A stretch of 64,000 nucleotides of DNA. Source: Phyllobates terribilis (Eukaryota). Below, piece by piece: positions 746 to 59,624 of this stretch; positions within the stretch are counted from its first letter, which is position 1, and the number at the start of each line of letters is the position of its first letter. Position numbers and translations under genes: made by a program. Where the stretch lies: contig NW_027362764.1 of the NCBI RefSeq assembly GCF_046119375.1, positions 664,144,001 to 664,208,000 on the forward strand. The letters are read 5' to 3'. The notes under the pieces are model-generated. The model saw only the letters and a program-made list of their open reading frames with translations. It searched no databases and had not been told where the DNA came from.

Positions 746-3421
746 ATTTCCTCCTAATTTTAGTCAGCTTTTGCTTTTCAATGCATAGGCGAACACTAAG
801 GGAGACCCACTCCCAATAATGGGTAGAAGGTTTTTAGTATGCTGTAATCCACATCTGTTTCAAGGGGCATTGCAGTTTCTCATAATTTTTGGAAAGCCTT
901 CCATTTACTGCTTAGGCCAACAGTGCACAGGAGACCCAGTTGCTATAAATGGAAAAAATGATTTAGTTAAGGCCCTCTGACCTCCATGTCACTTCCAAGG
1001 GGCATTGGAGTGCCTCGAAATTTTTGGTAGGCATTGCACTCACTGCATGCCCTATAACTGTGTTGCCGAACTGCTCCTTTTGGTACAGAAACATTTCCTA
1101 CAAGACATGCGTGGTTGACTGGCCTGATATTGATGTGAATGGTCCCTGTTCCTCCTACTCTTTCTCCTTTGCACCACCTCATCCATCATTCATCACCTGA
1201 AGCTTTGTTTTAACGGGAGTCACAGAACTGGGATAGTAGCAGGAAAACATCCAGCAATCCTCGGAGGAGGTAGGATATGCGCCAAAACGCTGACCACCCC
1301 AGGCCTAGCCGCTACTACATACATGCGCTTGCATTTCAAGAAAACAAAGCAGATGCTAACTTCTATCATCATGATCATGCTCCTCACTTTGGCACTCTCA
1401 AGTCTCCTGATGGAGAAGCCAGGGCCCACCGGAGGAGTCTCTGGTGGGCTCGTCCAATGCTGCCCTAAAGCTGACCGGGCTAAGAAAAGTGTGGGGGAAG
1501 TTCCAAGGAGAAATAGGGGCGGCTGGGGACCGAGTATGGACACCCGGCCGCCCCCTGGCAGCTGGGGACCGAGCGTGGACATGTGGCGCCCCTGAGGGTT
1601 CAGTCGCCACAGAGGTACTGCACCTCTCCCAGAGGTGTGGTGTCTCCTTCTCTCAGGTAAGGCGGGAGTGCTGCCCGGAACCCCAACACCTGCATCCAAC
1701 ACTACACTACTCCAGGCCGGCTGGAGGGGCAAGATGCAATGTGTTTTTCTGCTGAGCCCTGTCCCTGGCTGGAGTGGGGGGAACCCAAAGGTAGGGGGAA
1801 CCAGTAGTGGGTGTGGGTGGAGGAAGCAGTTTAGGGGAGCACTATATAGTGAGATATAAAAAGGGCAGTTCAGTCAGTAAGAGGAGAGTGTGCAGACAGT
1901 CAGGGAGCAGAATCTCTTTAGGAGCTCTGCTCCACAAGTAGGGCCCAGTCCTAGAGGCCCAGGTGGGGAGCAGAGGGGTAGGCTTCGATCTAAAGATGGG
2001 ATCCCAGGGGGTACGGCGAGTGCAGGACGGCACCCATACGCCCGGAATCTGTCAGAAGACAGTGGGATCGTAGGCCGCAAGAAGGGGACCGGCCCCTGGA
2101 CCAGTCGTGTAACTCCAAGTCTTGGCTGGAAAAACCGGAGGCTTCTGGCTTTTATAGACCAGTTGCCGCAGCCTTATTCTAATCTCCGTGAGGGTCAGGC
2201 AGGTCTGGCAACTCCAGCAAGACAGGAGGGATTTCAGAGAACCCGAGCGGGATTGAGAGTGGGGAAGCGCAGGGCAGGAGGAAGAAGACCCAGCGTGAAG
2301 ACGGTCTAGCTAGGAACACAAGAAAGTGGGGTTCCGTCAGGTGCTCCTAATATGCCTCAGGAAGAGCTGAATGCCTGCCTGGTGAACGCAGCGCGACGTG
2401 GGAGGCTGGCACCCGTACAGTGCACCAGTGGAACTGTCATAAGAACTGTGAGTAAAAACTCGGATGACTGCACCGTACTGCCTCCGTCCATTCTTTTATC
2501 TGTGCCCTCTTGCCTCCCGGCACTACAACGCCCAGCGCAACTTACACTACCTACACTGCCCTGGAGCTAGCTCTACCTGTGGAGAGCCACACCATCCCAG
2601 CTGCCCTAACACCAGCTCCAGAGGACTGCTCCGCAGCAGCGGCACCCTTTAGCCGCATTCCACAGGTGGCGTCACGAACTTTATAAATCCCCTATAAATA
2701 GAAAACCCCATTATATTGACCGCCCTGGGTCACGGACCGGGCCAGCCACCGTGATATCCCCCACCAGCATCCATAGGCCCGGATGCCGAGTACCTGTCAC
2801 GGGTGTGTCGCCACGAAGATCGTCACGAGTACACAGCCTGACTTCTCGCAGCTGACTTGTTGGTGCTTTGTGTTTTTCGGCAGTGAGGGAGTTAATTCTC
2901 TCTCTCTCTGTGCTAGACGAGGTCCAGCCTCGCCCAGCTGCAATCAATACTTCTGTAGTGAGACTCCTTCAAATGCCTGCTGGTCTGTTTGGGAAGTGTC
3001 GGTGAAAGCATTTCATTCAGACTTACAGAGCGGATCGTGGTGTTTGGAGTTTCTGAGATAAGTGTTTTTGGAGTGTTTCTTCCCTTCCTCGCTTTATCAT
3101 TTATCTCCTTTCCCGTTGGTGTTCCCTCTGTTGTAGTTGTGTAGTTGTTGTATGCAAGGTGGTTTTGGTTTTTCCCTTGTACTGTCTCGTTCGTCTAAGT
3201 ACTGTGTGTGGGCATATTATTTCTTGTTCCCTTTTGTAGTGATCGGGGTCCTTCTCAGGACTAGATTACTTTGGTGCAGGGATCCTCAGGAGGTAGGGGT
3301 TACGCTGGCGGCCTGGACCTCTGTACCTTTAACAGTACCTCCAGGTTGAGGGATTAGTCAGGGCCCCAGCTTAGGGTCAGCTTAGGCCCCCTACCTCCAG
3401 TATACTGAGACAGCGTGACAT

Positions 3422-3431
3422 TTTCACCGAC
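3422..3431 (+). promoter_or_regulatory. Non-tRNA primer binding site, candidate self-priming
   Basis: TTTCACCGAC is the reverse complement of GTCGGTGAAA at 2998-3007 in the 5' LTR. There is no TGG-type tRNA PBS. Confidence 0.7.
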
Positions 3432-3455
3432 CTGCTTAGTTTTTCTCCAGCTACC

Positions 3456-4295
3456 ATGGATCCAGTAGCCGGTCTAGCTCGGCAGTTGCAGAGTTTGTCC
3501 ATGGAGCTGGCGGACGTTAGGTCCAAGGTTTTGCATCCTCAGGAGCAAGCCAGACCAGAACCTAAAGTAGCTCTCCCTGACAGGTTCACTGGGGGGCAGG
3601 ACAAGTTTTTTGTTTTCCGGGAGGCATGCAAGTTGTACTTTCGGCTGCGGCCTCGGTCATCGGGGAGTGAAGAACAAAGGGTGGGAATTGTCATCTCGCT
3701 CCTACAAGGGGACCCACAATCTTGGGCGTTCTCTCTTCCCCCGGGCTCCCCGGCTCTCCAGTCAGTGGATAGGTTTTTCGCTGCTCTGGGACTCGTATAT
3801 GATGACCCAGATCGGATCTCCCTTGCTGAGTCTAAGTTACGTAGGATCCAGCAGGGAGATCGTCCGGCGGAGGAATTCTGTTCGGAGTTCCGTAGGTGGG
3901 CCACGGACACCCAGTGGAATGACCCGGCTCTTAGGAGCCAGTTTTGTCATGGTTTATCCGACAAATTACAGGATGTGTTGGCACAGTATGACTCTCCCGC
4001 GTCACTGGAGGCCGCTATGGCCCTTGCTATTCGCGTTGACAGACGGCTTCGGGAGAGGTGCGGGATAACTCTACCCCCTGTGATGACTCCACCTCCTACA
4101 AGGTCCCCTCATATGGTGGTTCCCCTGGTCAGTCCAGAGGAGCCTATGCAATTAGGAGGGACATCATTTCGGGGGAGGGGACCGGTGGTGCGCCATAAGA
4201 CAGGAAGGTGTTTCTTCTGCGGGAGAAAGGGACATTTTATTGGGGGGTGTCCATCCCGTCCCTTGCAGAGTGAAAAGTCGTCGGAAAACTGTTGA
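3456..4295 (+). CDS. gag: Gag with CCHC zinc knuckle (279 aa)
   Basis: PEPKVALPDRFTG and LLQGDPQSWA motifs typical of sushi-like Gag; knuckle CFFCGRKGHFIGGC. Confidence 0.95.
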   Translation: MDPVAGLARQLQSLSMELADVRSKVLHPQEQARPEPKVALPDRFTGGQDKFFVFREACKLYFRLRPRSSGSEEQRVGIVISLLQGDPQSWAFSLPPGSPALQSVDRFFAALGLVYDDPDRISLAESKLRRIQQGDRPAEEFCSEFRRWATDTQWNDPALRSQFCHGLSDKLQDVLAQYDSPASLEAAMALAIRVDRRLRERCGITLPPVMTPPPTRSPHMVVPLVSPEEPMQLGGTSFRGRGPVVRHKTGRCFFCGRKGHFIGGCPSRPLQSEKSSENC

Positions 4296-4327
4296 TCCCA
4301 GGTTGTGTGGTGGACGGCAATCTGGGA
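4283..4327 (+). promoter_or_regulatory. Candidate -1 ribosomal frameshift signal (G GAA AAC plus downstream stem-loop)
   Basis: Heptamer at 4283-4289 in the gag frame, 6-nt spacer, stem 4296-4306 pairing with 4317-4327. Pol lies in the -1 frame. Confidence 0.65.
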
Positions 4328-7300
4328 GTAGGTATTTCGTCCCTAGGTTCGTCTCAGTTTCTCGTACCGGCGGAGGTGGTGGTGGGTACGAGAACTGAGA
4401 GGATATCTGTTCTTCTGGATAGTGGGGCCGGGGCTAATCTGGTTGATGCTCGGTTTGCCCGGGTTCAAGGTATGCGATTGAGTGAGTTGGCTAAACCCAT
4501 CCCCATATTCTCGATCGATGCCAGGCCTCTCGGTCAGGGAAGTTTTTTGCAAGCTGTGCATGACGTAAAACTTCAAGTGGGGGCGATACATAAAGAACTG
4601 TTGTCTTGCTACGTGTTGGAGGGTCTTCCCACTCCTATAGTGTTGGGCCTTCCTTGGTTAGCTAAGCATAACCCGGTTATTAATTGGCAAACCAGAGAGA
4701 TAAGCCAATGGAGTAAATTCTGTAATTAAAACTGCATGAACACGGTCATCGGTGCGGTTACTCCTTGGGTCTTACCTCCATTTCTGGCGGACTTTGAGGA
4801 TGTATTCTCGGAGAAAGGGTGTCAGGAACTACCTCCTCATCGCGAGTATGACTGTTCTGTAAAACTGCTCCCTGAGGCCAAGTTACCTAAAGCTAGGTTG
4901 TATAACCTTTCTGGTCCTGAGAGGCAGGCCATGAAGGATTATATTTCAGAAAGTCTGGCTAAGGGGCATATTAGACCTTCATCTTCACCGGTGGCTGCGG
5001 GGTTCTTCTTTCTTAAGAAGAAAGATGGAGGCCTACGCCCTTGCCTGGATTTCCGTGAACTTAATCGGATTACGGTCCGAGATCCGTATCCGCTCCCACT
5101 TATTCCCGATCTCTTTAATCAGATCGTGGGTGCCAAATGGTTCTCTAAGTTGGATTTCAGGGGGGCGTACAATCTGATTAGGATGAAGGAGGGGGATGAG
5201 TGGAAGACGGCGTTTAACACTCCGGAGGGGCATTATGAGAACCTTGTCATGCCATTCGGTCTGACTAATGCCCCGGCGGTGTTCCAACACTTTGTTAATG
5301 ACATTTTTCGCCGCCTGGTGGGACAGTTTGTTGTCATATATCTGGATGATATCTTAATTTACTCGCCGGATCTGGTGTCTCATCAGGAGCACGTTAGGCA
5401 GGTGTTACAGATCTTGCGGGATAATAAACTGTATGCCAAATGGGAAAAGTGTGTGTTCGCCGTACAGGAACTCCAGTTTTTAGGCTTCCTGGTTTCAGCA
5501 TCCGGTTTTCGTATGGACCCTGGGAAAGTGCGGGCAGTTCTTGAGTGGGATCGGCCAGAGAATCTTAAGGCACTACAACGTTTCCTGGGGTTTGCTAATT
5601 ATTACCGGAAGTTCATTCGTAATTTCTCGTCCATGGTTAAGCCTCTCACAGACATGACTAAAAAGGGGACGGATTTTTCTAGGTGGTCTGACAAGGCTTG
5701 TCAAGCATTCTCCTCCTTGAAAAAATGTTTTGCCTCGGCACCCATACTCATTCAACCTGATGCGTCACAGCCATTCATTGTAGAGGTAGACGCTTCCGAG
5801 GTAGGGGTGGGAGCAGTATTGTCACAGGGTTCGTCCCCTGGTAAGTGGCATCCGTGCGCCTTTTTCTCTAAAAAATTTTCATCCGCTGAGAGGAATTACG
5901 ATGTCGGCAATAGGGAACTCTTGGCCATTAAGTTAGCTTTTGAGGAGTGGCGCCATTTTTTGGAGGGGGCAGTCCATCCGGTCACCGTCATCACCGATCA
6001 CAAGAACCTGCTATATCTGGAGTCCGCGAAACGTCTGAATCCCAGACAAGCTAGGTGGTCATTGTGTTTTACCAGGTTTAATTTTGTCGTTACATATCGT
6101 CCTGGGTCAAAAAATGTAAAGGCGGATGCCTTATCTCGTAGTTTCCCTGGGGCCGGGAATACGGACGACCCGATTCCTATCCTTCAGGAGGGGGTGGTGG
6201 TTTCGGCAGTATGCTCTGAGCTGGAGGAGGAGGTATTGGAGGCTCAGGGGGACGCCCCTGTTGGACCTCCGGGGAGACTGTTTGTTCCAGATCAGTTGCG
6301 ACAAAAGGTGATCGAGGCACACCATAACTCAGTTTTTGCAGGACACCCGGGGAGTAAAGCAACTGTGGATCTCCTCTCGCGTCGGTTTTGGTGGCCTAAC
6401 TTACATAAGGAGGTGGTAACTTTTGTCGCGTCTTGTGGGGTTTGTGCGCGCTCTAAGACCTCACATACCCGTCCGTCTGGGGCCCTCTTACCTTTGAAGA
6501 TCCCGGAGCGTCCTTGGACTCATCTGTCTATGGACTTTATTACGGACCTCCCTCCGTCTTCGGGTAAAACGGTCATACTCGTTGTAGTGGACAGGTTCAG
6601 CAAGATGGCACATTTTATCGCTCTTCCGGCTCTCCCTAATGCTAAAACTCTTGCGCAGGTGTTCATTGGGGAGATTGTGAGGCTTCACGGGGTACCCTCC
6701 GAGGTGGTGTCTGATCGGGGGTCTCAGTTTGTGTCCAAGTTCTGGAAGGCGTTTTGTGCACGGCGGGGGATGCATTTGTCATTCTCATCGGCTTTTCATC
6801 CTCAGACCAATGGTCAGACGGAACGTATGAACCAGAGCTTGGAGACATATCTCCGGTGTTTTGTGTCAGAGAACCAGGAGGACTGGGCTTCTTTCTTACC
6901 TCTGGCAGAGTTTGCTCTTAATAATAGGTGGAGCGAGTCCACTGGTAAGTCCCCGTTTTTTGGGGCATATGGTTTTCACCCCCAGTTTTGTACTTTCAGT
7001 AGGGGGGGCTCTTCGGGGGTTCCTGAGGAGGAACGATTTTCCTCATCACTCGCTTCAGTATGGAGAGGGGTGCTGAAGAATCTGAATACTATGGGGAACC
7101 GATACAAACGTATGGCTGATAGGAGGAGAGTGTCTGGTCCGGACCTAAGTGTGAACGATCGGGTATGGTTGTCTACCAGGAATATTAAACTTAAGGTTCC
7201 CTCCTGGAAACTGGGTCCCAGGTTCATCGGGCCATACAGAATCAGTTCTATTATTAATCCGGTGGCATTCCGTCTTGACCTCCCCCCTACGTTTAAAATT

Positions 7301-7666
7301 CACAACGTGTTCCACAGATCATTGCTTAAGAGGTATGTGGCGCCGGTGGTACCGTCACCTTTACCTCCCCCTCCAGTGGTGGTCAATGGTAACTTGGAGT
7401 TCCAGGTATCGAGGGTCATCGATTCACGCTTTAATCGCCGGTCCCTTCAGTACCTGGTTCATTGGAAAGGGTATGGTCCTGAGGAGAGGATGTGGGTTCC
7501 TGCGTCGGATATTAACGCAGACCGATTAGTTCGGGCCTTCCACACGACTCACCCGGATAAACCTGGCCCTGAGGGTCCGGAGGCCCCTCATAGAAGGGGG
7601 GGTACTGTCACGGGTGTGTCGCCACGAAGATCGTCACGAGTACACAGCCTGACTTCTCGCAGCTGA
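4292..7666 (+). pseudogene. pol: Pol (PR-RT-RNase H-integrase-chromodomain) with one in-frame TAA at 4727-4729
   Basis: ORFs 4292-4729 and 4736-7666 share a frame. Motifs: LLDSGA (protease), YLDD (RT), VDASEVGVGAVL (RNase H), HH-CC, MDFITDLP and SDRGSQF (integrase), GPRFIGPY, and YLVHWKGYGPEERMW (chromodomain). Confidence 0.95.
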
Positions 7667-8809
7667 CTTGTTGGTGCTTTGTGTTTTTCGGCAGTGAGGG
7701 AGTTAATTCTCTCTCTCTCTGTGCTAGACGAGGTCCAGCCTCGCCCAGCTGCAATCAATACTTCTGTAGTGAGACTCCTTCAAATGCCTGCTGGTCTGTT
7801 TGGGAAGTGTCGGTGAAAGCATTTCATTCAGACTTACAGAGCGGATCGTGGTGTTTGGAGTTTCTGAGATAAGTGTTTTTGGAGTGTTTCTTCCCTTCCT
7901 CGCTTTATCATTTATCTCCTTTCCCGTTGGTGTTCCCTCTGTTGTAGTTGTGTAGTTGTTGTATGCAAGGTGGTTTTGGTTTTTCCCTTGTACTGTCTCG
8001 TTCGTCTAAGTACTGTGTGTGGGCATATTATTTCTTGTTCCCTTTTGTAGTGATTGGGGTCCTTCTCAGGACTAGATTACTTTGGTGCAGGGATCCTCAG
8101 GAGGTAGGGGTTACGCTGGCGGCCTGGACCTCTGTACCTTTAACAGTACCTCCAGGTTGAGGGATTAGTCAGGGCCCCAGCTTAGGGTCAGCTTAGGCCC
8201 CCTACCTCCAGTATACTGAGACAGCGTGACAGTACCCCACGGCCCTGGGGGCACGTCAGACTGGGGACTGAGTATGGATACCTCGCTGCCGAAGCAGCCA
8301 TGAGGTAGTGGCCAGCTTCGGCCTCCTCCAAACTAAAAGGCCCCATTTCAAGTGCAAGCTAGCAGTATGGTATTGCAGCCTGGGGGTGGGTGGGTGGCAG
8401 GTTGCACACTTACACTTGCATTCCAAGAAAACAAAGCAGACGCTAACTTCTATCATCATCATCATGCTCCTCACCTTGGCACTCTCAACTCCCCTGATGG
8501 AGAAGCCAGGGCCCACCGGAGGAGTCTGGTTCTCTGGTGGGCTCGTCCAATGCTGCCCTAAAGCAGGCCAGCCTAAGAAAAGTGTGGGGGAAGTTCCAAG
8601 GAGAAATACTGGCGGCTGGGGACCGAGCGTGGACACCCGGCTGCCGGGCGGCTGGGGTCTGAGTATGGATACCTCGTTGCCGAAGCAGCCATGAGGTTGT
8701 TGCCAGCTTCGGCCTCCTCCAAACTAAAAGGCCCCATTTCAAGTGCAAGTTAGCAGTATGGTATTGCAGCCTGGGGGTGAGTGGGTGACAGGTTGCACAC
8801 TTACGCTTG

Positions 8810-9818
8810 TGTGTCACCCTACCTGGATGCCAAAAGTGTAATTAAAGCTGTGTCTGAGAGCAAGGGGGAGGTTCTCTGGTCAGGGGAACATTAGCATGCA
8901 ATGCCTCCTGTCTCAGGCCAGTAGGGGGAGCAGGCTGCCCCTATAAAAGCTGGTACTGGGGACAGGGTTAGGGGGAACTGGATTGCCTGTCTCAGCTCTG
9001 AGACGTGTCCCAGAGTGGAGCAGGGACAGAAAGTTGATTGCACCTAAGAGGAAGTGTGGCAGTAGGAGAGAGCCACCAGCCAGAGACAAGAGGCGAAGAG
9101 AGCCTGTCTTGGCAGAGAAAAGACTTAATTTTACCAGACTTTGGTGTCTGAGGCTGGAAGGATTCCACATCCCCCAGTAGAGAACCAGTCCGCAAGGGAC
9201 TGTACATTCCTTGGCCTAAGAAGCCTGGAGGCCCTGCCACAACCGAAGGGACCAGTAAAGCCGTACAAGGCTGGGAGCAGAAAGGAACCCACGTCGCAAG
9301 CCATACAGGCGAGAAAGCACGAAAGCTCGGAAACGTGGGCTGTTATCCTATCAGGAGGAGATAGTCAGAAGGAGCGCAGAAAGCACGGTAGGCCTACACC
9401 CTCACCCTGACCAGGGCCAATTTCCCCGTTGCTCTCAGACATCCAGGTCCCCTCCTAGCTGGGACTGTTTGTGGGTCAGTTTACCTGTTTAGTAAAGACC
9501 CTGGACTGCAACCTGTTTGTGTGCTCCTTGCTCCTCCAGCACTACCATCACTCCCACCATCCACTATACTGCCCTGGGGCCGCACTCTTCCCGTGGGGAG
9601 TCACACTACCATAGCTTCACACCTCATCAGCCCCAGCGGTCTGCATGCAGCGGCGGTTCCTAATAATCGCAATCCACGGGTGGCGTAGTCGGACATAATC
9701 AATATAACGGACTACCACTGGCCTGACCACCCTGAGCCACGGAACCGGGTTGCCACTACTACTCCCATCATTCCCTATTGCCCGGATCCGAGTGCCCCAC
9801 GGCCCAGGGGGCGAGTTA
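8810..9818 (+). mobile_element. Solo LTR B (diverged subfamily)
   Basis: Starts TGTGTCACC and ends GGGGGCGAGTTA. 4-bp TSD CTTG at 8806-8809 and 9819-9822. TATAAAA at 8943, AGTAAA at 9491. Confidence 0.85.
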
Positions 9819-10869: not shown

Positions 10870-11001
10870 TGCCGCCGCAAAAATGCTCGGGTCTCCCATA
10901 GACTAACATTGGGCTCGTTGCTCGGGTCGAGCACTCGAGTATCACGGTGAGCTCGGCCAGACCTTCGAGCACCAGAGCATTTTAGTGCTCGCTCAACACT
11001 A
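10870..11001. mobile_element. Terminus of an older hAT-family element; 253-11001 is probably its interior
   Basis: Ends GCTCGCTCAACACTA, the same terminal 11-mer as 17993-18003, with clustered subterminal CTCGAG/TGCTCG motifs. Confidence 0.7.
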
Positions 11002-11165: not shown

Positions 11166-11244
11166 GCGGTCATTTGTTCTCTCTGATATTAATTAGGAGA
11201 AGATTCTTTATTTCCATTAGTGATTAAATACTTGGAACAAGATG

Positions 11245-12239: not shown

Positions 12240-12795
12240 AAAAGCCGGCAATTCAGCAGCGGCCTTCCCCCTTTACCCGACAATTTAGAACCGAAAGAAT
12301 AGGGCATCACACATAGATTAGATAGATAGAAACATGTCAGCCACATATATACGAAGTACAGTGAAAGTGTTGCTTACTGTACTTGTCATTTAGTGTAAAG
12401 GATTTATCAAAAAAAATAATAGTGTTTTCATGCACCTTCTCTTTAAAAAAGCCGGCCGGCAATTCAGCATCTGTACCCGACAATTTATAACAGACAGAAT
12501 AGAGCTTCACACATAGATTAGATAGATAGAAACATGTCAGCCACATATATACGAAGTACAGTGATAGTGTTGCTTACTGTACTTGTCATTTAGCGTAAAG
12601 GATTTATCAAAAAAAATAATAGTGTTTTCATGCACTGTCTCTTTAAAAAAGCCGGCCGGCAATTCAGCAGCGGTACCCGACAATTTATAACAGACAGAAT
12701 AGAGCTTCACACATAGATTAGATAGATAGAAACATGTCAGTCACATATATATGAAGTACAGTGATAGTGTTGGTTACTGTACTTGTCATTTAGTA
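12240..12795 (+). repeat. 200-bp tandem repeat, mirrored in inverted orientation at 17230-17790
   Basis: CGACAATTTA at 12278, 12478 and 12678; reverse-complement copies (TAAATTGTCGGGTAC) at about 17334, 17534 and 17734. Confidence 0.9.
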
Positions 12796-14404
12796 TTAAA
12801 ATAAAGGATTTATTATTAAAAAAATTGGCGTGGGGTTCCCCTTAATTTTAGGCTCTAGCGGAGGTTAAGCAGACGGCTGGGGCAGATGTTTGAAGCCTGG
12901 GAAGGGGGTAATACCCACGGAGCTTCCCAGGCTACTAATATCAGCCCCCAGCTGAATACATAGCCTTTACTAGCTATTAAAATGGGGGACACCCCAAAAA
13001 AAATGACGTGGGGTCCCCCCTAATTTAATAGCTAGCAAAGGCTAGGCAGACAGCTGGGGGCTGATATTAATAGCCCAGGAAGGGAGCCATGAATATTGGC
13101 CCCCTCCCAGGCTAGAAACACCAGCCGTCAGCCGCCCCAGAAATGGCGCATTCATAGGATGCGCCAATTCTGGCACTTAGCCTCGCTCTTCCACGCTGCC
13201 CTGGTGCGGTGGCAGGGGGTAATAGGGTTGGGGTTGATGTCAGCTTATAATGCCAGCTGACATCAAGCCCAGGTTAGTAATGGAGAGGCGTCTATAAGAC
13301 ACCCCCATTACTAACCCCATAGTCAAAGTTAAAAAAAACACAAACACCCAGAATAAAGTCCTTTAATTGAAATAAAGACACAATCCTTTATTGTTCTAAA
13401 TTAAACCATACTTACTGTCACGCCCATTCCAGCTGAAGCCAACGATCTCCTGCAATAAAAGAAAAATAATAAAGCAACCTCATCCTTACCTTTCCATGGT
13501 TCCCACGACAGCTTCAGCTCTGCTACATCGAGATGACAGGCTGGACCGCAGCAGAACGCCGCCATCCAGCCTGTCATCCCGCAGACACTGAGAAGCGCAG
13601 GCTTGCTTGCGCTGCTCAGCGTCTCTCTGTGACGACATCCAGATGAGCCGAGTTCATGTCCAATGAACTCGGCTCACCTCATGCACGTCACTGACAGCGT
13701 GGGAAAATTCTCACGCTGAAGCGGTGAGTGCAGGAGAATTCTCCCACGCTGTCAGTGACGTGCATAAGGTGAGCTCATGTCCAATGAACTCAGCTCACCT
13801 CCTGCACTTCACTGACAGCGTGGGAGAATTCTCCTGCACTCAGCGCTTCAGCGTGAGAATTCTCCCACGCTGAAGCGCTGAGTGCAGGAGAATTTTCCCA
13901 CGCTGTCAGTGACGTGCATAAGGTGAGCTCATGTCCAATGAACTCAGCTCACCTCCTGCACGTCACTGACAGCGTGGGAGAATTCTCCTGCACTCAGCGC
14001 TTCAGTGTGAGAATTCTCCCACGCTGAAGCGCTGAGTGCAGGAGAATTTTCCCACGCTGTCAGTGACGTGCATGAGGTGAGCCGAGTTCATTGGACATTA
14101 ACTCGGCTCATCTGGATGCCCTCACAGAGAGACACTGTGGAGCGCAAGCAAGCCTGCGCTTCTCAGTGTCTGCGGGATGAGAGGCTGGATGGCAGCGTTC
14201 TGCTGCGGTCCAGCCTGTCATCTCGATGTAGCAGAGCTGAAGCTGTCATGGGAACCATGGAAAGGTAAGGATGATGTTGCTTTATTATTTTTCTTTTATT
14301 TCAGGAGATCGTTGGCTTCAGCTGGAATGGGCGTGATGGTAAGTATGGTTTAATTTAGAACAATAAAGAATTGTGTGTTTATTTCAATTAAAGGACTTTT
14401 TTCT

Positions 14405-20690: not shown

Positions 20691-21175
20691 GATCAAAGCA
20701 CCTGGGATCTTGTAGTCGTGATGTGAGCTGGGAATCTTTACCTTGTCCATGGTCATTATAAATGGACAGGTTTTACACTTTTTCTGGTTGCAAGAAAACG
20801 TTCCTGTGTCTGGTGGAGATGACAGGGAGCTTCTGGAAATGATGCTTCTTAGATTTGGGGGCTGCCTGAAACACAGATGTTGGGGGGTTTGGAAATATGG
20901 ATTTTAATCGGGCATCTTTTTGTAGTTAAAGTTGTAAAGGATTTTGGGAAGCATATAGAATGTCCCTATTCTTGGACTCTCTTGTATCAGGTCATCGGCT
21001 CTTATGGATTTGTCAGGCAGCCAAGATGCCAACTTGTTTACAGTAGTTCCTTGTAATAGTCCTGTGTAGGGTCAGACTCTAATTTTTTGTAGTAGCGTGT
21101 GTCCATCAGTTGTCTGTTTTCTTCCATTATGTAGTTGTCGCGCCCCTGGGGACCTTACTGTTTGGGGACAGTATA

Positions 21176-22810
<1,635 letters not shown>

Positions 22811-38952: not shown

Positions 38953-38954
38953 TA

Positions 38955-44852: not shown

Positions 44853-44877
44853 TTTGGTGGTTAACTAATTCACAACT

Positions 44878-44905
44878 CTGGAGTTGTTTGCACAAAAAAA
44901 CAATG
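44878..44905 (-). promoter_or_regulatory. Candidate splice acceptor just upstream of the transposase ATG
   Basis: The minus strand reads TTGTTTTTTTGTGCAAACAACTCCAG|AGTTG..., about 25 nt before ACCAAAATG. A TATAAG and a CCAAT lie near 47080-47115. Confidence 0.4.
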
Positions 44906-44964
44906 GATGGTAACCGAGCAGAGCTGAGTGGCCAAACTGTGGTATTAGGCCAAAACTATTGGCT

Positions 44965-46575: not shown

Positions 46576-47893
46576 TGACGCTATGCCCAAAAGATTTTAC
46601 TTCACTAGGTGCAGTAAAAAAATTGGTATTCTATACACAGGTGGTATATCTTGCAACACAGATAGGCTACTCCACTGACTAACACACTCTGCAATAGGCC
46701 AAAAAGGATTAGCTTTGCTAGATTCAGCCAAATGCTGTGAAAAAAACTTGCACAGCACTGGCACAGACCTGCCTGGCAAAAACTGATAGGAACTGATGTA
46801 ACCTAGTCCTGAAAAGGACTCCAATTACAATTAGTCTTTACTCCCACAATCTATCTATTTAAGAGCACAGACCTGCTTGATAAAAGTCGTAGGAAATGCT
46901 GTAACCTAGTCCTTAAAATGACTGCAATCACAACTATTCCCTACTTCCAAGCTATCTGTATATTTGTGCGAAAATTGGCTTGAAATTAACAAGGTATAGC
47001 GCACACAGCAACAGCGGTGCCGTCTAACACGCAGCTGCAGCAGTGAGAAAATGTTGGCGACGGGGAAAATGGCTTGGTCTTATAGGGCAAGGACATGTGA
47101 CATACACTGCCAATCACACATGCCCTTGCTTGTGTGAAAAAAAGCACTTCGCTCCGTGTGTGCGCTGCTTATAGGCTGACAGATTGCACCTCCCCACTGC
47201 AAATGCGGGAAAGAGAAAAAAAAATGGAGATCTTCATTGTTCCTGCAGAGATCCATCCCCTGCCCCTCCCCCCGCCCCGCTGTACACTCAAACTGCGTAT
47301 TAACATTAATTTTCATCATTACTGAGAAAAAATCCAGTTATGATTTTGGTGCACGAACAGTTATCGAACATAACCTCGAACAGCCGAATTTTTCTCAAAT
47401 TGTTCGTGTTCGCCGACCGGCTCGAACACCGCCCAAAACAGCTCGAATTTGAGATTGGCGAACAGTTCGAGTAGAACAACGCTCATCTCTAATTCTGAAG
47501 TAAAGCCTTAGTAGTGATTGATTTAAGAACAAGAGGAATATACAGTAACTAATTACTCAAGTAAGTTCCAGTCAGGACCGGGGTAAGATGGGGGCCATGT
47601 TTTGGTGACTGTAAGTGGATTCTGGCAACTCTCACCACCATGCTCACCACCTAATGCAAGAGGGAGTAGGGCAAAATAACCCTGTTATTGGCCGGTCAAC
47701 AAAACCTAATTTAGGAAGGGTACTCATTATGTTTGTGCCCATTGCTGGACACATTCTCAGGAGGTATGCACCCAATAGTGGCCACAGTCAGAATGAATGC
47801 CAAGACCTACACCCAACGTAGGGACTCACTGTAAAAATATATACTGCATGGTTTATGTGTCTTTGCAGGTTTCGGCACTTTCCTATACAGTCA

Positions 47894-50045: not shown

Positions 50046-52816
50046 CAACTTCAACAAAGTTCTGTATTGGTGTGACATGAACTGATGTAAAATTTGACTT
50101 GTAAAACAGATCTGCAAATAAAAAAGTTGTTTGAGACACACACTCTTTCTCAGGTGGACATTGGCAGTTAAATGTCTAAATTTTAGAGAATTTTTCTGTT
50201 GGATTTTTTAAAAATTAATTATTCCCTCTCTACCAAAACGATTGCACAAGAAATGAAACAACTCAATACAGCTGCTTGTCTGACACTTATTTCAGATTTT
50301 TTTCAGTAAAAAAGATATTTTACTGTTTTGATTCTCTTTTCTAATGCATTAAAAATGAAGAAAAAATGTGTAATTGTTATTCAAATGCAGCAGGACACAT
50401 GTCAGCTACATCATATCCCTGATCAATCACATTGAATGCGTCACTGCTGCTGGCACCTCTCCTCTCTCTCTCCCCCTTCTCATTTTAATTTCTTTATTAT
50501 TCACAGACCACTATTCTCTTCTTCTTCTTTGTTGCAGTTGTTCAACATCTTGCTGTTTGTAGTATTTGTGAAATGCTTTAAAGCTTTATCATCAGCTATC
50601 CTAAAATAACCCTAAAAAGGGTGCTGCAATTAATGGTTTGGCTTTAATACAGGCTATAAAATTACTGATTGGCTGCACTATATCATGTGCTGCAAAGCAT
50701 TATTGGGAAGTCCACGCAGTCGCTTCTGAGGTCAAGTCAGTCTTCTGTGACTGATGCAGTATTCTTCAATGTATAAAAAAGCAGCAGGCATTTATTTTGT
50801 GATTTGAGACTCACCCTTGCAGCATGGGTTCCGTGAGGCACCAAGTCACTCACCCTGCTGGTACACTGCCGCTGGGATGGTGGTTGTGCACGGTGACGCA
50901 ACTTACAGGTTATAAAAAGTTAGGACCCACTGAGAGGTTCTCTGTCATGTGGTAGTGGGCTTGATACCGTCTGATCAGAATGTTAAACAAAGAACCTCAT
51001 GTTCAGTTTTGTAAATTTTTGCCTAGCGGCATTAGATCAATGTATGCTTTTTGGGTGGCGGTCCATGTGTTTTTCTACAATATTGGTACAAACGGGAGAA
51101 GTGATACTGATAATTTCCTCTGTGTGCTACATCCCCCTATAGTTCTGGTCAATATCATGCATTGTATTGTTCTTCTCTGTGACTTTGTTCTTACAGTGTG
51201 GAAAATAAGTATTTGATACACTGGCTATTTTGCAAATTTTCCCACCTACAAAAAATGGAGAGGTCTGTAATATTTATCGTAGGTACAAATCAACTGTGAG
51301 AGACAGAATCTAAAAAGAAAAACAAGAAAATCACATTGTATGATTTTTAAATAATTTAATTAATTGCATTTTATTGCATGAAAAAAGTGATTGATCATCT
51401 ACCAACCAGATAGTTTGTGACGCCACTTGTGGTACCTGGTAAGGATTACCAGCGCTGCTGCAGACCTCTGGTGGGTGATGGAATGGATGGCAGCTGAGGT
51501 GTTTCTGCTCCCCACAGGTGGAGCGGGCCCCCGGGGCAGTGTGAAGTTTGATGGTGGTGATGCTGGGACCTGTAGTGCAGGTGGTTAGCGCAGCAGGAGT
51601 AACTGACAGAGACAGGGGATTTGCTTCAATACCTTTACTGGTGCAGATGTCAGGTATGGTCCAGGGTACTCAGTAGGATGGGTGCACTTCAGGACTTCTC
51701 CGCAGTGAGCGGGTATAGGGCCTCCTGGTCCGTGTCTGCCTCTCTGTATGCTCCTGGCCAGCCAGCAACTGGGCCTAGCTTATGTGTCGTGCTGTTCCTT
51801 CACCTGTCGCTTGGTAGTAGGACCTTCTGTTGGCAACCACTATCCCTGGTGAAGCTGGGGCCTTCGTGGTTCCTTGTCTTGTAATGGGTCTAGCTTCAGG
51901 TCAGCCAAGGACTTGTAGTCCTCCTGGGATGCCGGTGATCCCTACTGGGTATAAAGGGACCCTGTAGGCGCAGACCCGGTGTCCGGTTTGTATATCGGGG
52001 TGAGCCTATGATGCTCCTCTGCTCCCCCAACTCCTCTCTCCTTTCTCCTCTTGCCGTCGGCCACACTTGGGGCCCTCAGAACTCAACTCATGCTGTAGGC
52101 CTTGGCTCGCCTAAGCACAGCAGCCAGCGTGCTGCGTCTTCACTGGTCTAAGTGCCAGCAAACTCTCTCTCTGACTGAGAGACTGACTAACTGCCTGGCT
52201 CCACCCTCCATATATATATATATATCAGTAACGGGCTCCCTCTGGTGGTATGAGGTGGAAGGGTGGAGGTGTTTGTATGTAATGAGGGCCTCTGGTGGAG
52301 AAGTCCATCCATGCACCCTGGGTCCTGTGGTACCTGTGCGCAGCAGGGTGCCACATTCCCCCCTAGTACAATTCAGTACTCCTGGACTGAAGCATTTTGT
52401 AACAGGTTACAACAATAATAACAATTATAATAATAACAATAAGTATAATAACATTAATAAAGTTACAGTAAGTCCGGTAACCAGGTGTCCATTTCACCTA
52501 AGAAAGAACATGAGAAACATGAGGGACCCGTCTGAAAACCCTCAACATAGGCCCTGGGCATGGCTACAGGGCATAAGTGATCCAGGTGCTGGACCACGTC
52601 TTCGGCCACGCCAAACGGGTTTTTGTTCTGTGGTCAATTAAGGAGCACTTTTATAAGTGCAACTATTTACAAGTAAAGTTTTTGGCTGCTCACAGTCCTC
52701 AGCCTACGAGTCTTTATACCCTTACGGGTAACTAAATGCACATATATTTTCATTTTACATAATAAACAATATGCAATACCCTCTGGGTAACTATTTACAA
52801 TTTAGGCACTTCACGC

Positions 52817-55800
52817 TTATTCCCTAAACCTGGCAGGGATTTGTCCTTGTGTGCTGCGTGTGGACCTTCGTAGCACTGGGGTGATACTAGTGTCTGTGCA
52901 TGCACTCTCTGGTAATCTAGCAGGTGTACGTGCTGGTAGATTGTAAAACTGCCTCAATCTCTCTATGGGACTGGCAAGTGCACTGTTCACTGGGCCTTCA
53001 GGCTCTGTTTCAACTGGTGCTTCTCTTCTTTCTGGGGACTCTTCCTGTTCCTGAGCAGGCTCTTCCGGAACGCTTAAAGGTTCTTCTGGTTGTTGATAGA
53101 AGTGTATCACTGGTACTATAACTGCTCCATCAAGTTGAGGCCAGTCTGCAGGGAAATCGCCTAGAACTGTGTGAAGCACTTCTTCCTTGGGTTCTTCCGG
53201 TGCTATAGGAGGTACTTCTTCCTCCGTTGTCTTCAGTAGACCTGGGCACACTTTCAGATGGTCTTTTGAGACTGTAGCAGTTGTTTTTCCTCCATCTTTG
53301 CTAATCAGGCAGGTTTTACTGTTATCAAACTTTGAGTTCAACACTGTGTAGGGCTCTCTTTCCCACTGGTCATCGAGCTTGTGACTTCTTCTCTTCCGCT
53401 TTAGCACTATCTCTCCAGGTGCCAAGGGTTCTGCTGGCGCATGTTTATTGTACTGTTCTTCCTGTCTTTCCCTTACTCTGTTCAGACTGTATTCGACACA
53501 GGCCTGTATTCTCCTGTACTGCTCTTGCCGATTTGTATCCCAGTCTTCAGTGGACATATCTGCTTCCGGTTCTACCACTCCGAGTTCCAGGTCCATGGGC
53601 TATTTTCCAGGTCTTGCTCTCATGAGGTACACTGGAGTACAATTTGTAGAACTCACAGGTATGTGATTGTACAGATCTACCAGGTCAGGTAGTTTGTTTG
53701 GCCACTGATTTCTTTCTTCCAAGGGTAAGGTTTTCAGCAGGTCTATGACGATGTTGTTCATTTTCTCACACAAACCATTGGTCTGAGGGTGGTACGGCCA
53801 CCTGTATGGTGCCACCATACAGGTGGCAGAATTCTTTAAACAGCTCAGCTTCAAAGGCAGGGCCTTGATCCGTCAGCACTTTGTCCGGGTATCCATGGGG
53901 TCTGCAGAAGTAGGCTTGGAACGTCCTTGCTGCAGTTTCTGCTGTCAGGTCCTTGACAGGGGCTACCACCAGGAACCGGGAATAATGATCCACCATGGTC
54001 AGTGCATAGGAATAGCCTGACCTGCTGGGTGACAACTTGACGTGATCCAGATCGACGATCTCCAGGGGCTGGGTTGTTTTGATGGACTGCAAGGGTGCTT
54101 TCTGGCTGCCGTAGTCTTTCCTTCTGAGGCTACAGGGCCCACAATTCCGGCACCACCTCTCTATGGAGCTCCACATTCCAACCCATTAGAACCGGTCCTT
54201 CCGCAGGGTTTCCAGCTTCTACCAGCCAAAGTGACCTGCTTGATCGTGGTAGGCTTCCAACACCATCTTGATATCCGTTCTGGGTACAACAATCTGCCAC
54301 ACCATTTCAAGGGTCTTGGGGTTGACATATCTTCTGCACAGCTTCTCTCTATAGATGAACAGCCGGCTTCTCTCATTTCACAGTTGCTTGGCTTGTCCAC
54401 CATGGTCAGTGGATAGGAATAGCCTGACCTGCTGGGTGACAACTTGACATGATCCAGAGCGACGATCTCCAGGGGCTGGGTTGTTTTGATGGACTGCAAG
54501 GGTGCTTTCTGGCTTCCGTAGTCTTTCCTTCTGAGGCTACAGGGCCCACAATTCCGGCACCACCTCTCTATGGAGCTCCGCATTCCAACCCAGTAGAACC
54601 GGTCCTTCAGCAGGGTTTCCAGCTTCTACCAGCCAAAGTGACCTGCTTGATCGTGGTAGGCTTCCAACACCATCTTGATATCCGTTCTGGGTACAACAAT
54701 CTGCCACACCATTTCATGGGTCTTGGGGTTGACATATCTTCTGCACAGCTTCTCTCTATAGATGAACAGCCGGCTTCTCTCATTCCACAGTTGCTTGGCT
54801 TGTGGAGGAGCATTCTTCTCCAGGTGAGAACCTTCCTGGGTGATCAGTCTTTTGATAAGGCTGACAACTGGGTCACTGTCCTGGGTCTCCTTCCAATTGT
54901 GGTGGGGTAGAGGATTCAGCGTCCTTCCCTGATGTCTTCTGGTGACGTGTTGCTCACGGACCATTCAGCTTCGGTGGAAAGCAGGTAATTCAACTTCCTC
55001 TAAATCATCCACTTCATCCTCGGTGTCTGACTGGTGGGACATCCTTGACAGGGCATCAGCATTGGTGTTCTTGTGACCTGCCCGGTACTTGATGGTGAAC
55101 TGATAATTCGACAGTCTGGCCACCCAACGCTGTTCCATGGCTCCCAACCTGGCTGTCTCCAGGTGTGTCAAGGGATTGTTGTCAGTAAAGGCTGTGAATT
55201 TCGTTGAGGCTAGGTAATGCTTGAACCTTTCAGTGATAGCCCAGACCAAGGCCAGGAACTCCAGCTTGAAGGAACTGTAGTTCTCCGGGTTCCTCTCGGT
55301 AGGACGTAGATTACTGTTGGCATATGCAATTACCTTCTCTCGTCCATTCTGCTTCTGGGACAACACAGCTCCCAGTCCCTCGTTGCTGGCGTCGGTGTAC
55401 AGCAGGAAAGGCTGGCTGTAGTCAGGGTAAGCCAGGATTTCTTCACCAGTCAGGATTTTCTTCATTACTGCAAAGGATTCAGTCTGTTCTTTGCCCCACT
55501 CGAATGGAGGACTCTTTCCTATTTTGGACAGTCCTACCAGGAGGTCTTGTAGAGGTGCTACCTTTTGGTATAGTCCTTTATGAACCTCCTGTAGTACCCG
55601 ACCAGTCCCAGGAATTGCCGTACTTCTTTAATGCTTCTCGGCTCAGGCCACTTCTGGACGGCAGTGACCTTCTCCAGGTCTGGTGCTATCCCTTCTGAGC
55701 TGACTACGTGCCACAGGTACTGAACCTTCTGCTTGAGCAAGTGGCATTTACAAGGCTTTAGTTTCATCCCATACCGGGACAATGCTTCAAATACCTCCGC

Positions 55801-56100
55801 CAGGTGCTTCAGATGGTCCTCATATGTCCTCGAGTACACGATAACGTCATCCAGGTACAGCAGCACTGTCTCGAAGTTCCGATGTCCCAAGCAACACTCC
55901 ATCAGCCTCTGGAACGTTCTGGGTGCATTGCAGAGTCCAAAGGGCATACTGTTGTACTCGCACAGTCCCATCGGGGTAGTGAAGGCCGTCTTCTCCCGGT
56001 CTTCCTCAGCAACAGAGACTTGGCAGTACCCACTAGTGAGATCCAGTGTAGAGAAGTAATTGGCAGATTTTAGTGCAGCCAGGGATTCCTCTATACGGGC
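52817..56100 (-). pseudogene. pol: Pol remnant: RT (N-terminus and protease deleted), RNase H, integrase with a 407-bp internal duplication
   Basis: LDLTSGY, MPFGLCNAP, LYLDD, YTDASNEGLGAVL, YHDQAGH..CGPC, DHVKL, TDQGPAFE and a C-terminal LRRSTR, with multiple frameshifts. Confidence 0.92.
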
Positions 56101-56273
56101 TCCGTCTGTAGCTTCAGGGTGCTCAGGACAGTGGCCAGGGTTTTACTCAGCTGACGCACTTCAGAGCACAGGTTGTCCAGATCGCTAGGGAGCACTGTTT
56201 GCATCTTTGTTTCAGCCGTTAATGAAGGAGCAGTGGGTGCTGGGGGCACTGGGGTGGCCCCACCCTGGTAACG

Positions 56274-56948
56274 CTAGATAGCAGTCCCTGATGTTTCCAG
56301 GGGCTGTAGACCCTTAATAGCCATGTCCTTCAGGGTGTCAAAGGTGGCGTCTGGATGATCTAAAGCCCACCACCGTACAGTTTTGCTCTCCTCCTGGGAC
56401 CTCAACCCCCGGATGAACTGTTCCGTCAGCATTTTATTCTCATCTTGTATGCTGGCTGGACTAACCTGTTTCAGGGCCCGCAGGGCTTCCTGTAAGTGCC
56501 AGGCGTAGTCCCGGACACTGTCCTCAGGTTTCTGGGTACAGTGGTAGAACCTCATCCGGAGATCTGTCTCAGTGCAGCTTTCAAAGACAGTTTGCAGTCT
56601 CTTAAAGATAATGGATACTGATTCCTGGTCTGCGGCTGGCCAGGTTTCAACTTCCCGCTCTGTGGCACCAGTCAATTGTCCCAGCACAACAGCGGCTTTC
56701 TGCTTACCAGTCATAGAAAACATGTCCAGTACACCGCATATTTTTCTCTTGAACCCAGACAGGGTGTCTGGTTTGCCATCATACTGGGGAAGCCATTTCG
56801 CTCCAGGGATATACGTCAGGGCCATGGGTATCAACGGAGTCACGACCCCTGCTGGTGGGGCGGCCGCCCAGGCTTGTGCAGCGCCAGGCGCAAGTTGGGC
56901 ATCAGGGGCGTTAACCGGTGCTCCGGCGGCTTGCTGGTTGTCGGCCAT
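56274..56948 (-). CDS. gag: Gag (PNMA-like capsid domain), prematurely terminated
   Basis: LPQYDGKP, LGQLTG and RFYHCTQKPEDSVRDY motifs, located between the PBS and pol. Confidence 0.8.
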   Translation of the reverse strand: MADNQQAAGAPVNAPDAQLAPGAAQAWAAAPPAGVVTPLIPMALTYIPGAKWLPQYDGKPDTLSGFKRKICGVLDMFSMTGKQKAAVVLGQLTGATEREVETWPAADQESVSIIFKRLQTVFESCTETDLRMRFYHCTQKPEDSVRDYAWHLQEALRALKQVSPASIQDENKMLTEQFIRGLRSQEESKTVRWWALDHPDATFDTLKDMAIKGLQPLETSGTAI

Positions 56949-57350
56949 GATTGCGCCCCCCTAGTAAACCGTAGCCTACCTTCTTTACTTGGATCAGGTA
57001 GGCCGCAGCTCCGCAGGCGACGGTCTCCTTCCAGGACCTTGCGTCTCCCTCGCGGCAGACGTCAGAGCGTGCGCTTGACAATGATCTCCTTCTAGGACAT
57101 GACGCTTCCTGGTTCGGCGTCAAGGCGCGAGGCGGGGCCTGGGCTTCGCGCGTTTCCAGTGGTTACGCCTCTCCGATTCCCATGGTTACGCCCCTCTTCT
57201 TCCCAAGCGGCGACAGGAAAATGGCGGATAATGGCTGGAAACCTCGGGAATTGCGGGAAATCTTCACCACAGTAAGTGTTACAGTCTTTTAAGGCGCACA
57301 GTACCCGGTGGCAACGGGCATGCAATCCTGTTCATTGCAACGGGCACGAA

Positions 57351-57368
57351 ATCCTGTTCGTGATGCCA
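57351..57368 (-). promoter_or_regulatory. Primer binding site complementary to the tRNA-Ser(CGA) 3' end
   Basis: TGGCATCACGAACAGGAT, 5 nt after the LTR end, matches 17/18 to the complement of ...AUCCUGUUCGUGACGCCA (tRNA sequence recalled from vertebrate tRNA sets). Confidence 0.85.
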
Positions 57369-59624
57369 GAAGTTGACGCGCCCCCAGATCAATGGTGTAC
57401 TCGGCAGCCGGGCCTATGGATGCTAGTGGGGGATATCACGGTGGCTGGCCCGGTCCATGGCCCAGAGCGGTCAACCAAAAAGGGGATTATAGCTTGGAGA
57501 AAAAAATAAAAATAAAGTAAATAGTTTGTGACGCCACCTGTGGTACCTGGTAAGGATTACCAGCGCTTCTGCAGACCTCCGGGGGGTGATGGGATGGCAG
57601 CTGAGGTGTTTCTGCTCCCCACAGGTGGAGCGGGCCCCTGGGGCAGTGTGGAGTTTGATGGTGGTGATGCTGGGACCTGTAGTGCAAGTGGTTGGTGCAG
57701 CAGGAGTAACTGACAGAGACAGGGGATTCGCTTCAATACCTTTACTGGTGCAGATGTCAGGTACGGTCCAGGGTACTCAGTAGTATGAGTGCACTTCAGG
57801 ACTTCTCCCCAGTGAGCGGGTATAGGGCCTCCTGTATGCTCCTGGCCGGCCTGCAATTGGGCCTAGCTTATGTGTCGTGCTGTTCCTTCACCTGTCGCTC
57901 GGTAGTAGGACCTTCTGTTGGCAACCACTATCCCTGGTGACGCTGGGGCCTTCGTGGTTCCTGGTCTTGTAATGGGTCAAGCTTCAGGTCAGCCAGGGAC
58001 TTGTAGTCCTCCTGGGATGCCGGTGATCCCTACTGGGTATAAAGGGACCCTGTAGGCGCGGACCCGGTGTCCAGTTTGTATATTCGGGGTTAGCCTATGA
58101 TGCTCCTCTGCCCCCTCAACTCCTCTCTCCTTTCTCCTCTTGCCGTCGGCCACACTCGGGGCCCTCAGAACTCAACTCGTGCTGTAGGCCCCAGCATGCT
58201 GCGTCTTCACTGGTCTAAGTGCCAGCACTCTCTCTCTCTGACTGAGAGACTGACTAACTGCCTGGCTTCCACCCTCCATATAAATATCCCTAACGGGCTC
58301 CCTCTGGTGGTATGAGGTGGAAGGGTGGAGGTGTTTGTATGTTATGAGGGCCTCTTGTGGAGAAGTCCGTCCATGCACCCTGGGTCCTGTGGTACCTGTG
58401 CGCAGCAGGGTGCCACATGTAAAAGACCAAAGAGATGACTAAGGACACCAGGGAGAAAATTGTTGACCTGTACAAGCCTGGGATGGGCTACAGGACAATA
58501 GGCAATCAGCTTGGTGAGAAGGAAACAACTGTTGGTACAATTATTAGAAAATGGAAGAAATGCAATATGACTGTCAATCTTCCTCGGTCTTGGGCTCCAT
58601 GCAATATCTCGCCTCGTGGGGTAAGCATGATTCTGAGAAAGGTCAGGAATCAGCCAAGACCTACACTGGAGGACCTAGTCAATAACTTGAAGATAGCTGG
58701 GTATCAAACATTACCATTAGTAACACTACGCCGCCATGGATTAAAATCCTACAGGGCACGCAAGGTCCCCCTGCTTACACCAGCACATGTCCAGGCCTGT
58801 TTGAAGGTTGCCAATGACCATCTGGATGATCCAGAGGAGGCATGGGAGAAGGTCATGTGGTCAGATGAGACTAAAATACAACTTTTTGGTATAAACTCCA
58901 CTCACCGTGTTTGGAGGAAGAAGAAGGATGAGTGCAACCCCAAGAACACCGTCCCAACCGTGAAGCATGGTGAGGGAAACATCATACTTTGGGGGTGATT
59001 TTCTGCAAAGGGGACAGGATGACTGCATTGTATTGAAGGTAAGATGGATGGGGTCATGTATCGCGAGATTTTGGCCAATAACCCCCTTCCCTCAGTAAGA
59101 GCATTGAAGATGGATCGTGGTTGGGTCTTCCAGCATGACAATTACCCAAACACACAGCCAGGGCTACTAAGGAGTGGCTCTGTAAGAAGCATTTCAAGGT
59201 CCTAGCGTGGCCTAGCCAGTCTCCAGACCTGAACCCAATAGAAAATCTTTGGAGGGAGCTGAAACCCAATGTTGCCCAGCAACAGTCCTGAAACCTGAAA
59301 GATCTGGAGAAGATCTGTATGTAGGAGTGGGCCAAAATCCCCACTGCAGTGTGTGCAAACTCGGTCAAGAACTACAGGAAATGTCTGACCTCTGTAATTG
59401 CAAACAAAGGTTTCTGTATCAAATATTAAGTTCTGTTTTTCTATTGTGTCAAATACTTATTTCATGCAATAAAATGCAAACTAATTATGCAAAAATCATA
59501 CAATGTGATTTTCTGGATTTTATTTTTAGATTCTGTCTCTCACAGCTGAAGTGTACCTAAGATTAAAATTACAGACCTCTCCATTCTTTGTAGGTGGGAA
59601 AACTTGCAAAATCGGCAGTGTATC

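Follow-up and report, generated by a model that had tools for sequence, protein, structure and literature searches.

Why should a retrotransposon carry, within its own long terminal repeat (LTR), a second short complement to the tRNA that primes it? The question is raised by a stretch of 64,000 nucleotides (nt) from the 10.6-Gb genome of the frog Phyllobates terribilis (NCBI RefSeq assembly GCF_046119375.1, contig NW_027362764.1, positions 664,144,001 to 664,208,000 of the forward strand), referred to here as the window. Self-comparison and inspection place in it seven solo LTRs (A to G) and one minus-strand gag-pol element of a Ty3/Gypsy family. The family is very abundant, with more than 150,000 exact copies of the motif discussed below in the genome. 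A sequence-only reading of the window had reported that six of the solo LTRs and both LTRs of the element carry, in the unique 5' region (U5), a motif resembling a primer-binding site (PBS). Every position that it gave for the motif reads as reported and the observation holds overall, copy G lacking the motif through a short deletion. What that account of U5 overlooked is a second site, X, for the 5' end of the tRNA, and a predicted pseudoknot next to the motif. Together with the motif, called here the inner site, they form a layout that is well supported, at the level of sequence, as a variation on the multipartite primer-binding site.

The family has the characteristic features of the Ty3/Gypsy group. 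The gag gene is followed by pol with reverse transcriptase (RT), RNase H and integrase in that order (Pfam), a CCHC knuckle and a polypurine tract (PPT) are detected, and the PBS follows the 5' LTR. The nearest named pol proteins come from poison frogs first, then from other frogs and fish, and matches to the pol clade are at 67-82% identity. All seven solo LTRs are flanked by 4-bp target-site duplications (two with one mismatch), as are full elements. Complete LTRs have TG...CA ends, with the terminal CA always at the outer position, 138-163 nt past the inner motif.

The inner site is an 11-nt complement of tRNA-Ser nt 66-76, located in U5 about 150 nt before the PBS, and covers the CCA end, the discriminator and the 3' strand of the acceptor stem. 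In the 5' LTR of the window's element (57374-58417, minus strand, CGA type, TG...CA) it lies at 57524-57536, where it complements the 3' strand of tRNA-Ser(CGA) with a G>A change at position 10. The true PBS of this element, 18 nt complementary to tRNA-Ser(CGA) with one mismatch, lies at 57351-57368 after a 5-nt spacer from the LTR end. The match to the tRNA-Ser 3' end had been recognized correctly, while its length had been put at 12-13 nt; agreement with the tRNA is 0.90-1.0 per position at positions 1-11 and at most 0.31 at positions 14 to 16 in 49 representatives that are pairwise less than about 86% alike, many of them drawn from loci chosen by the motif. Conservation within U5 peaks at the 11-mer (0.97-0.99, versus 0.57-0.59 just downstream and 0.75-0.77 in the rest). 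In loci anchored by the upstream hairpin rather than chosen by the motif, 45 of 48 copies keep it at 10 or 11 of the 11 positions. In CGA types, position 11 is A in 20 of 20 cases and pairs with tRNA U66, not with X. The reading CACAAA is a G>A variant of CACGAA. Among CGA-type inner sites (for example at window position 57527) G10A exceeds C9T by 10 to 1, and L017 has G10A in both its inner site and its PBS; an isodecoder or strand-biased mutation is possible.

The inner site follows the isoacceptor of the primer, as the sequence-only reading had proposed. Exact motifs number 34,568 for the CGA type and 117,047 for the AGA/TGA type, with none for the reversed-pattern controls. Across the genome, 39,015 pairs of inner site and PBS are concordant and three are discordant (one AGA inner site with a CGA PBS, two CGA inner sites with an AGA PBS). 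Closer inspection leaves L033 as a true discordance, L034 having a damaged inner site and L035 a compound PBS. In the last (L035:1656-1669, counted on the minus strand) a partial CGA PBS runs directly into a full AGA PBS, which may record a primer switch under way. The agreement also holds in smaller samples. When elements are chosen by their PBS alone, 29 of 30 have the concordant inner site at 10 or 11 of 11 positions; among 20 stretches fetched around motif pairs, all 10 AGA-type and 5 CGA-type elements with a PBS agree, the remaining 5 stretches not being single elements.

The host has the corresponding tRNAs. ARAGORN finds genes for tRNA-Ser(CGA) (L027), tRNA-Ser(AGA) (L041) and tRNA-Ser(TGA) (L042, L043 and L045), and their 3' ends match the motifs, as had been anticipated. 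Elements account for 22 of 27 loci fetched by tRNA pattern; their PBS reaches 24-52 nt into the tRNA, showing that the outer PBS is where these tRNAs prime. The extensions themselves (L021-L053) are read-through past the usual stop. A search for other tRNA-Ser isoacceptors at both sites gave 2 matches, neither of a new type, versus 13 for the reversed control, and no third primer type was found. A CTCF or cAMP-response-element-like DNA motif and a splice site were also considered for the inner site and dropped, since neither explains the switch with the tRNA.

Site X complements nt 1-11 or 1-12 of the same tRNA and sits in the loop of a U5 hairpin, about 75-95 nt before the PBS. In the element of the window it lies at 57434-57446 and complements tRNA-Ser(CGA) nt 1-11, with a predicted energy of -21.9 kcal/mol. 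Like the inner site, X follows the isoacceptor: the element's own tRNA is predicted to bind better in 27 of 29 AGA and 18 of 21 CGA representatives, and X passes a shuffle test in 32 of all 50. Among windows of the tRNA, nt 1-12 is the most enriched relative to shuffles (-18.1 versus -12.8, and -19.2 versus -13.1), and the two halves of X are ordered as the tRNA 5' end requires, unlike those of a 3'-end mimic. Between the inner site and the LTR end, the only segment scanned for them, T, D and anticodon-arm windows have no clear enrichment. In the anticodon region CGA types alone give a signal, a modest one at tRNA nt 31-42; nothing is enriched in AGA types.

The third component is a predicted H-type pseudoknot that ends directly at the inner site, with a spacing of 0 nt. 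Some 90 nt upstream of the CCAC(A/G)GG stretch that precedes the inner site is a hairpin with a 5-bp stem, and its loop is the predicted pairing partner of that stretch. In the 5' LTR of the window's element, the hairpin (stem 1, with the 5' strand of stem 2 in its loop) is at 57614-57631 and the 3' strand of stem 2, CCACAGG, is at 57537-57543, abutting the inner site. The sequence-only reading had taken CCAC(A/G)GG for a captured LTR end; it is instead one strand of a predicted RNA helix that changes with its partner, being CCACGGG or CAACGGG in some subfamilies. The strands co-occur as CCTGTGG/CCACAGG, CCCGTGG/CCACGGG and CCCGTTG/CAACGGG. Pairing is found in 99.2% of 372 cells in 31 of the 49 representatives, with 43-56% in slid controls, and the shuffle control is inflated by related sequences. 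Two-sided changes occur in 5 of 12 pairs (3 of 5 in one helix and 2 of 7 in the other), compensatory changes that point to a pseudoknot of the H type. RNAalifold also finds an alternative fold, in which the 5' strand of stem 1 pairs with UGGCGU of the inner site and 4 pairs are kept in 31 of 31 rows.

The positions of AGTAAA and of a TATA-like box near the LTR 5' end would place this module in U5. AGTAAA, which is likely to be the poly(A) signal (57741-57746 in the element's 5' LTR), precedes the inner site by 189-229 nt in most copies and is replaced by AATAAA in one subfamily (L009 and L105). It is roughly 350-390 nt from the PBS in this family and 84-99 nt in a sister Gypsy clade of the same genome, so U5 is extended, as had been suggested. 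Family-wide, the spacer between the LTR-terminal CA and the PBS is 3-8 nt and specific to the subfamily.

The sister clade, whose RT is about 60-65% identical, has the same tRNA-Ser(AGA) PBS and a short U5. Neither the inner site nor X is present in the 6 LTRs scanned, and no inner 11-mer within one mismatch occurs in 16 loci. The module is an addition of this lineage, where it is kept in coding and non-coding copies alike. An RT tree of 24 coding copies needs one change of isoacceptor. A second AGA group, with 933 matches, consists of non-coding copies with a different upstream hairpin and has an AGA PBS in 17 of 20 loci. With L036, L054, L055 and L085 left out, the approximately unbiased (AU) test does not reject a single AGA origin for either U5 segment (p-AU 0.49 and 0.50). 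The leader after the PBS alone rejects it (p 4e-9), a result for which recombination can account. Several independent switches were considered and set aside as without proof, the leader being the only segment that rejects one origin and recombination sufficing for it. Many copies (L093-L117) are non-coding; their LTRs are full, and the distance from the PBS to the start of the 3' LTR is 2-2.6 kb or less. A long array of near-identical AGA-type copies, dozens in 1.7 Mb, occupies G000:C1:438.86-440.55 Mb. A search for relatives in viral contigs gave none, and 78 metagenome loci are distant (40-48% identity) with no clear duplicated PBS.

Two copies record events at the inner site itself. The 5' LTR of L036, an element whose 3' LTR is normal, contains a full 18-nt PBS in register at the position of the inner site, together with a deletion that ends inside the pseudoknot hairpin. 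L026 has a duplication running from the inner site to the LTR end, with a full, in-register 18-nt PBS preceding the start of the second copy. Both arrangements fit a plus strand that ended in an 18-nt copy of the tRNA and annealed at the inner site, each being a single case in which changes after insertion are possible.

What could such a module do? The reading to which we give an even chance, judged from the sequence, is that the U5 sites and the pseudoknot form a clamp that opens and parks the primer tRNA and then passes it to the PBS. If transcription begins close to the 5' end of the LTR and AGTAAA serves as the poly(A) signal, the module would lie in the 5' leader. The 3' strand of the tRNA would pair with the inner site and the 5' strand with X. 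The tRNA's 3' end may then stack on stem 2 of the pseudoknot, where reverse transcriptase would rarely extend it. The 3' strand would later move to the more stable 18-nt PBS, with X preventing the 5' strand from re-closing the stem. Rare strand-transfer errors that overwrite the inner site with tRNA sequence would provide a route for both its origin and its switch. The predicted energies are graded in this order: -22 to -23 kcal/mol for the tRNA with the inner site, -18 to -19 with X and -33 to -35 with the PBS, so that PBS binding is 10-13 kcal/mol stronger than binding at the inner site, while the inner site and X pair with each other at only -9 to -10.5 kcal/mol. When U5 is cofolded without the PBS, in a model that takes no account of the pseudoknot, the element's own tRNA is favoured in 48 of 49 cases and both of its strands are captured in 38 of 49.

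Several observations weigh against a clamp. In the largest AGA lineage site X is weak and carries a bulge, only 16 of the 29 AGA representatives pass the shuffle test, and that lineage has a nearby stretch for which folding onto the inner site is predicted. X could be of use only to the tRNA already bound at the PBS, and the hand-over to the PBS is a step that we only infer. Folding predicts the inner site to be no more open than the PBS; single-sequence folding is inconsistent here because it cannot model pseudoknots. The covariation of the 39,015 pairs goes back to one or two events, each involving three sites. Finally, the sister clade has neither inner site nor X and uses the same tRNA, so the module is not needed to prime with tRNA-Ser(AGA).

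The main rival to the clamp, which sequence cannot separate from it, is that a second tRNA-Ser stays at the inner site as the ligand of a T-box-like conformational switch; its binding would free the 5' strand of stem 1, allow the pseudoknot to form and route the RNA between translation, dimerization and packaging. Such a switch is possible, although we consider it unlikely. The alternative RNAalifold fold coexists with a covarying stem 1 and so provides the two states required, but its four pairs vary on one side only. The inner site starts with the complement of the NCCA end, and the module is kept in non-coding copies, which need packaging in trans; yet AGA types have no anticodon-reading element, the nt 31-42 signal being confined to CGA types, and no regulatory output is known. 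It is improbable, on our estimate, that the pseudoknot and the two acceptor-stem grips bind uncharged tRNA-Ser by both of its strands as a tRNA-sensing RNA switch that times the passage from translation to reverse transcription, a eukaryotic counterpart of the T-box. There is only a slight chance that the inner site acts within the RNA alone, offering X or the stem-1 strand an alternative partner, never binding tRNA and following the primer by way of X. The inner site and X can pair over 6-7 bp, and in one AGA lineage the inner site is followed by a further complementary stretch, but this pairing is weak beside that with the tRNA, CGA position 11 fits the tRNA and not X, and in L036 it is tRNA sequence that has been copied in at the inner site.

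That the inner site is a neutral leftover of a duplicated PBS, occasionally renewed through errors of reverse transcription, is very improbable and already largely refuted. L026 shows that such duplications occur, L036 shows overwriting and the sister clade manages without the module, but overwriting turned up once among at least 39,015 elements and yields 18 nt, not 11, and the 11-mer is the top-conserved U5 window across divergent subfamilies. The sequence-only reading had itself offered two functions. One was a decoy that would keep 3' tRNA fragments from blocking the PBS; such fragments do act through PBS complementarity, with no seed match needed in some contexts, according to excerpts of PMC12853362. 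We think a decoy highly unlikely, given the weaker binding at the inner site, and it accounts for neither X nor the 0-nt spacing to the pseudoknot. The other, a second working PBS that gives an alternative, shorter LTR end, has next to no likelihood. The sequence CA + 4 nt + TGG does resemble the outer junction, and L036 may stem from one inner-primed strand. Against routine dual priming, 11 nt are conserved and not about 18, and the inner context is joined to a full PBS in only 3 copies genome-wide (L036, L037 and L038). L036 and L037 have normal, long 3' LTRs, the 3' LTR of L038 was not found, and in the 5' LTRs of L037 and L038 the sequence separating the two repeats is missing. LTRs terminate at the outer CA rather than just before the inner site. 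Of the copies in the lineage searched, 68 are without the motif after CCA; among the 30 inspected, 28 keep downstream U5, 1 keeps the LTR end and 1 runs into a simple repeat, so that 29 of 30 continue into normal U5. Copy G belongs to the same class of short deletions after CCA.

The copies in the window illustrate the layout and its variation. Solo LTR A (1582-8258, plus strand, CGA type) has the hairpin at 2570-2587, the stem-2 strand at 2660-2666, the inner site at 2667-2679 and X at 2744-2756. Solo LTR B (8810-9818, plus strand, AGA/TGA type) has these at 9584-9601, 9674-9680, 9681-9692 and 9751-9763. In the large AGA lineage (window 9681-9720, L001 and L003) X is bulged, and a stretch 20-30 nt past the inner site is predicted to fold back on that site. 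Hairpin, inner site and X lie at 22976-22993, 22887-22898 and 22817-22829 in solo LTR C (21136-23803, minus strand, CGA type, with a Tc1 insert), at 24902-24919, 24809-24821 and 24732-24744 in D (24675-25899, minus strand, CGA type), at 28884-28901, 28982-28994 and 29068-29079 in E (27921-29138, plus strand, CGA type) and at 38689-38706, 38790-38801 and, in bulged form, 38875-38890 in F (37742-38952, plus strand, AGA/TGA type). Solo LTR G (59625-60872, minus strand) keeps the hairpin (59844-59861) and a CGA-type X (about 59682-59694), the inner site being deleted after 59764. The reported distances from motif to LTR end are reproduced: 138 nt in B, 147 in D, 157 in E, and 163 in both F and the 5' LTR of the element. 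The body of the element, with broken gag (PNMA-like) and pol (RT, RNase H, integrase), spans 52817-56960 on the minus strand. Its 3' LTR (51410-52355, minus strand) has the hairpin at 51507-51524 and the inner site at 51413-51425, and adjoins the PPT (52356-52363). It is indeed cut 3 nt past the inner motif, at 51410; this is no common break point, and the junction is Tc1-like sequence.

Other mobile elements share the window. A chromovirus-type Gypsy element (2794-8228, plus strand), with gag and a pol that includes a chromodomain, is inserted in LTR A, and no tRNA-type PBS is seen after its 5' LTR. A second Gypsy element with a broken gag-pol lies at 31641-36491 (plus strand). A 1230-codon open frame at 41172-44864 (minus strand), with a BED finger and a hAT dimerization domain, adjoins a 110-bp tandem array (44822-46661). 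Nested inverted and direct repeats of up to 1174 nt at 98% occupy 12271-17752. Two Tc1-type transposase frames and a Pao/BEL protease fragment are found at 21394-22485 (minus strand), 58423-58998 (plus strand) and 30309-30929 (minus strand).

Several retroelements contact their primer outside the PBS. In yeast Ty1 and Ty3, as described in excerpts of PMC4974528, the RNA of the element base-pairs with its primer tRNA over several segments set apart from one another; in Ty1 the additional segments come after the PBS and contact the T and D arms, in Ty3 two segments are located at the 3' end of the RNA, and a 5' pseudoknot matters for Ty1 retrotransposition. The frog family resembles them, as far as that account extends, in having extra segments complementary to the same primer and, like Ty1, a pseudoknot; it differs in that its sites are in U5, on both strands of the acceptor stem, and one of them competes with the PBS for the 3' end. 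Drosophila Gypsy, also of the Gypsy group, has a second 11-nt site for its own primer that is unused for priming; it is situated close to the 3' end of the RNA and pairs with the anticodon and T stems, so that one tRNA bridges both ends (excerpts of PMC1635307). By comparison with that partial account, the frog site is complementary to the CCA end itself and lies about 150 nt from the PBS. In HIV-1, U5 pairs with the primer outside the PBS through the primer activation signal (PAS) and the A-rich loop, adapts to a change of primer, and annealing displaces the tRNA 5' strand (excerpts of PMC11181671, PMC3185550 and PMC8473020). Unlike the frog sites, the HIV-1 contacts bind the T arm and the anticodon loop, and those excerpts describe no second CCA-end site.

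The closest match to site X is in feline immunodeficiency virus (FIV), where the loop of the U5 inverted repeat (U5-IR) pairs with the 5' end of tRNA-Lys3; to our knowledge FIV has no duplicate 3'-end site or abutting pseudoknot. The bacterial T-box riboswitch is an RNA that binds the tRNA NCCA end and stacks it on a helix. T-boxes pair 4 nt, keep the acceptor stem closed and read the anticodon. The frog RNA has UGGC directly after stem 2, which could likewise pair with the NCCA end; unlike a T-box, its site pairs 11 nt, no specifier was found, and an Rfam search of one LTR gave two weak, unrelated matches with no T-box near threshold. A full-text literature search, with Repbase, Dfam and subscription papers outside it, found no description of a second CCA-end site in U5 combined with a 5'-end site and a pseudoknot.

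The opening of the tRNA and the timing of the start of reverse transcription are known in detail only for HIV-1, Ty1 and Ty3. This family offers a natural swap in which three separate sites have changed with the primer, so that exact contacts are predicted on a 350-nt RNA. The rare errors of L026 and L036 show how an LTR can grow and how cis-acting sites can follow a change of primer, in a family that is among the most successful elements of a 10.6-Gb genome.

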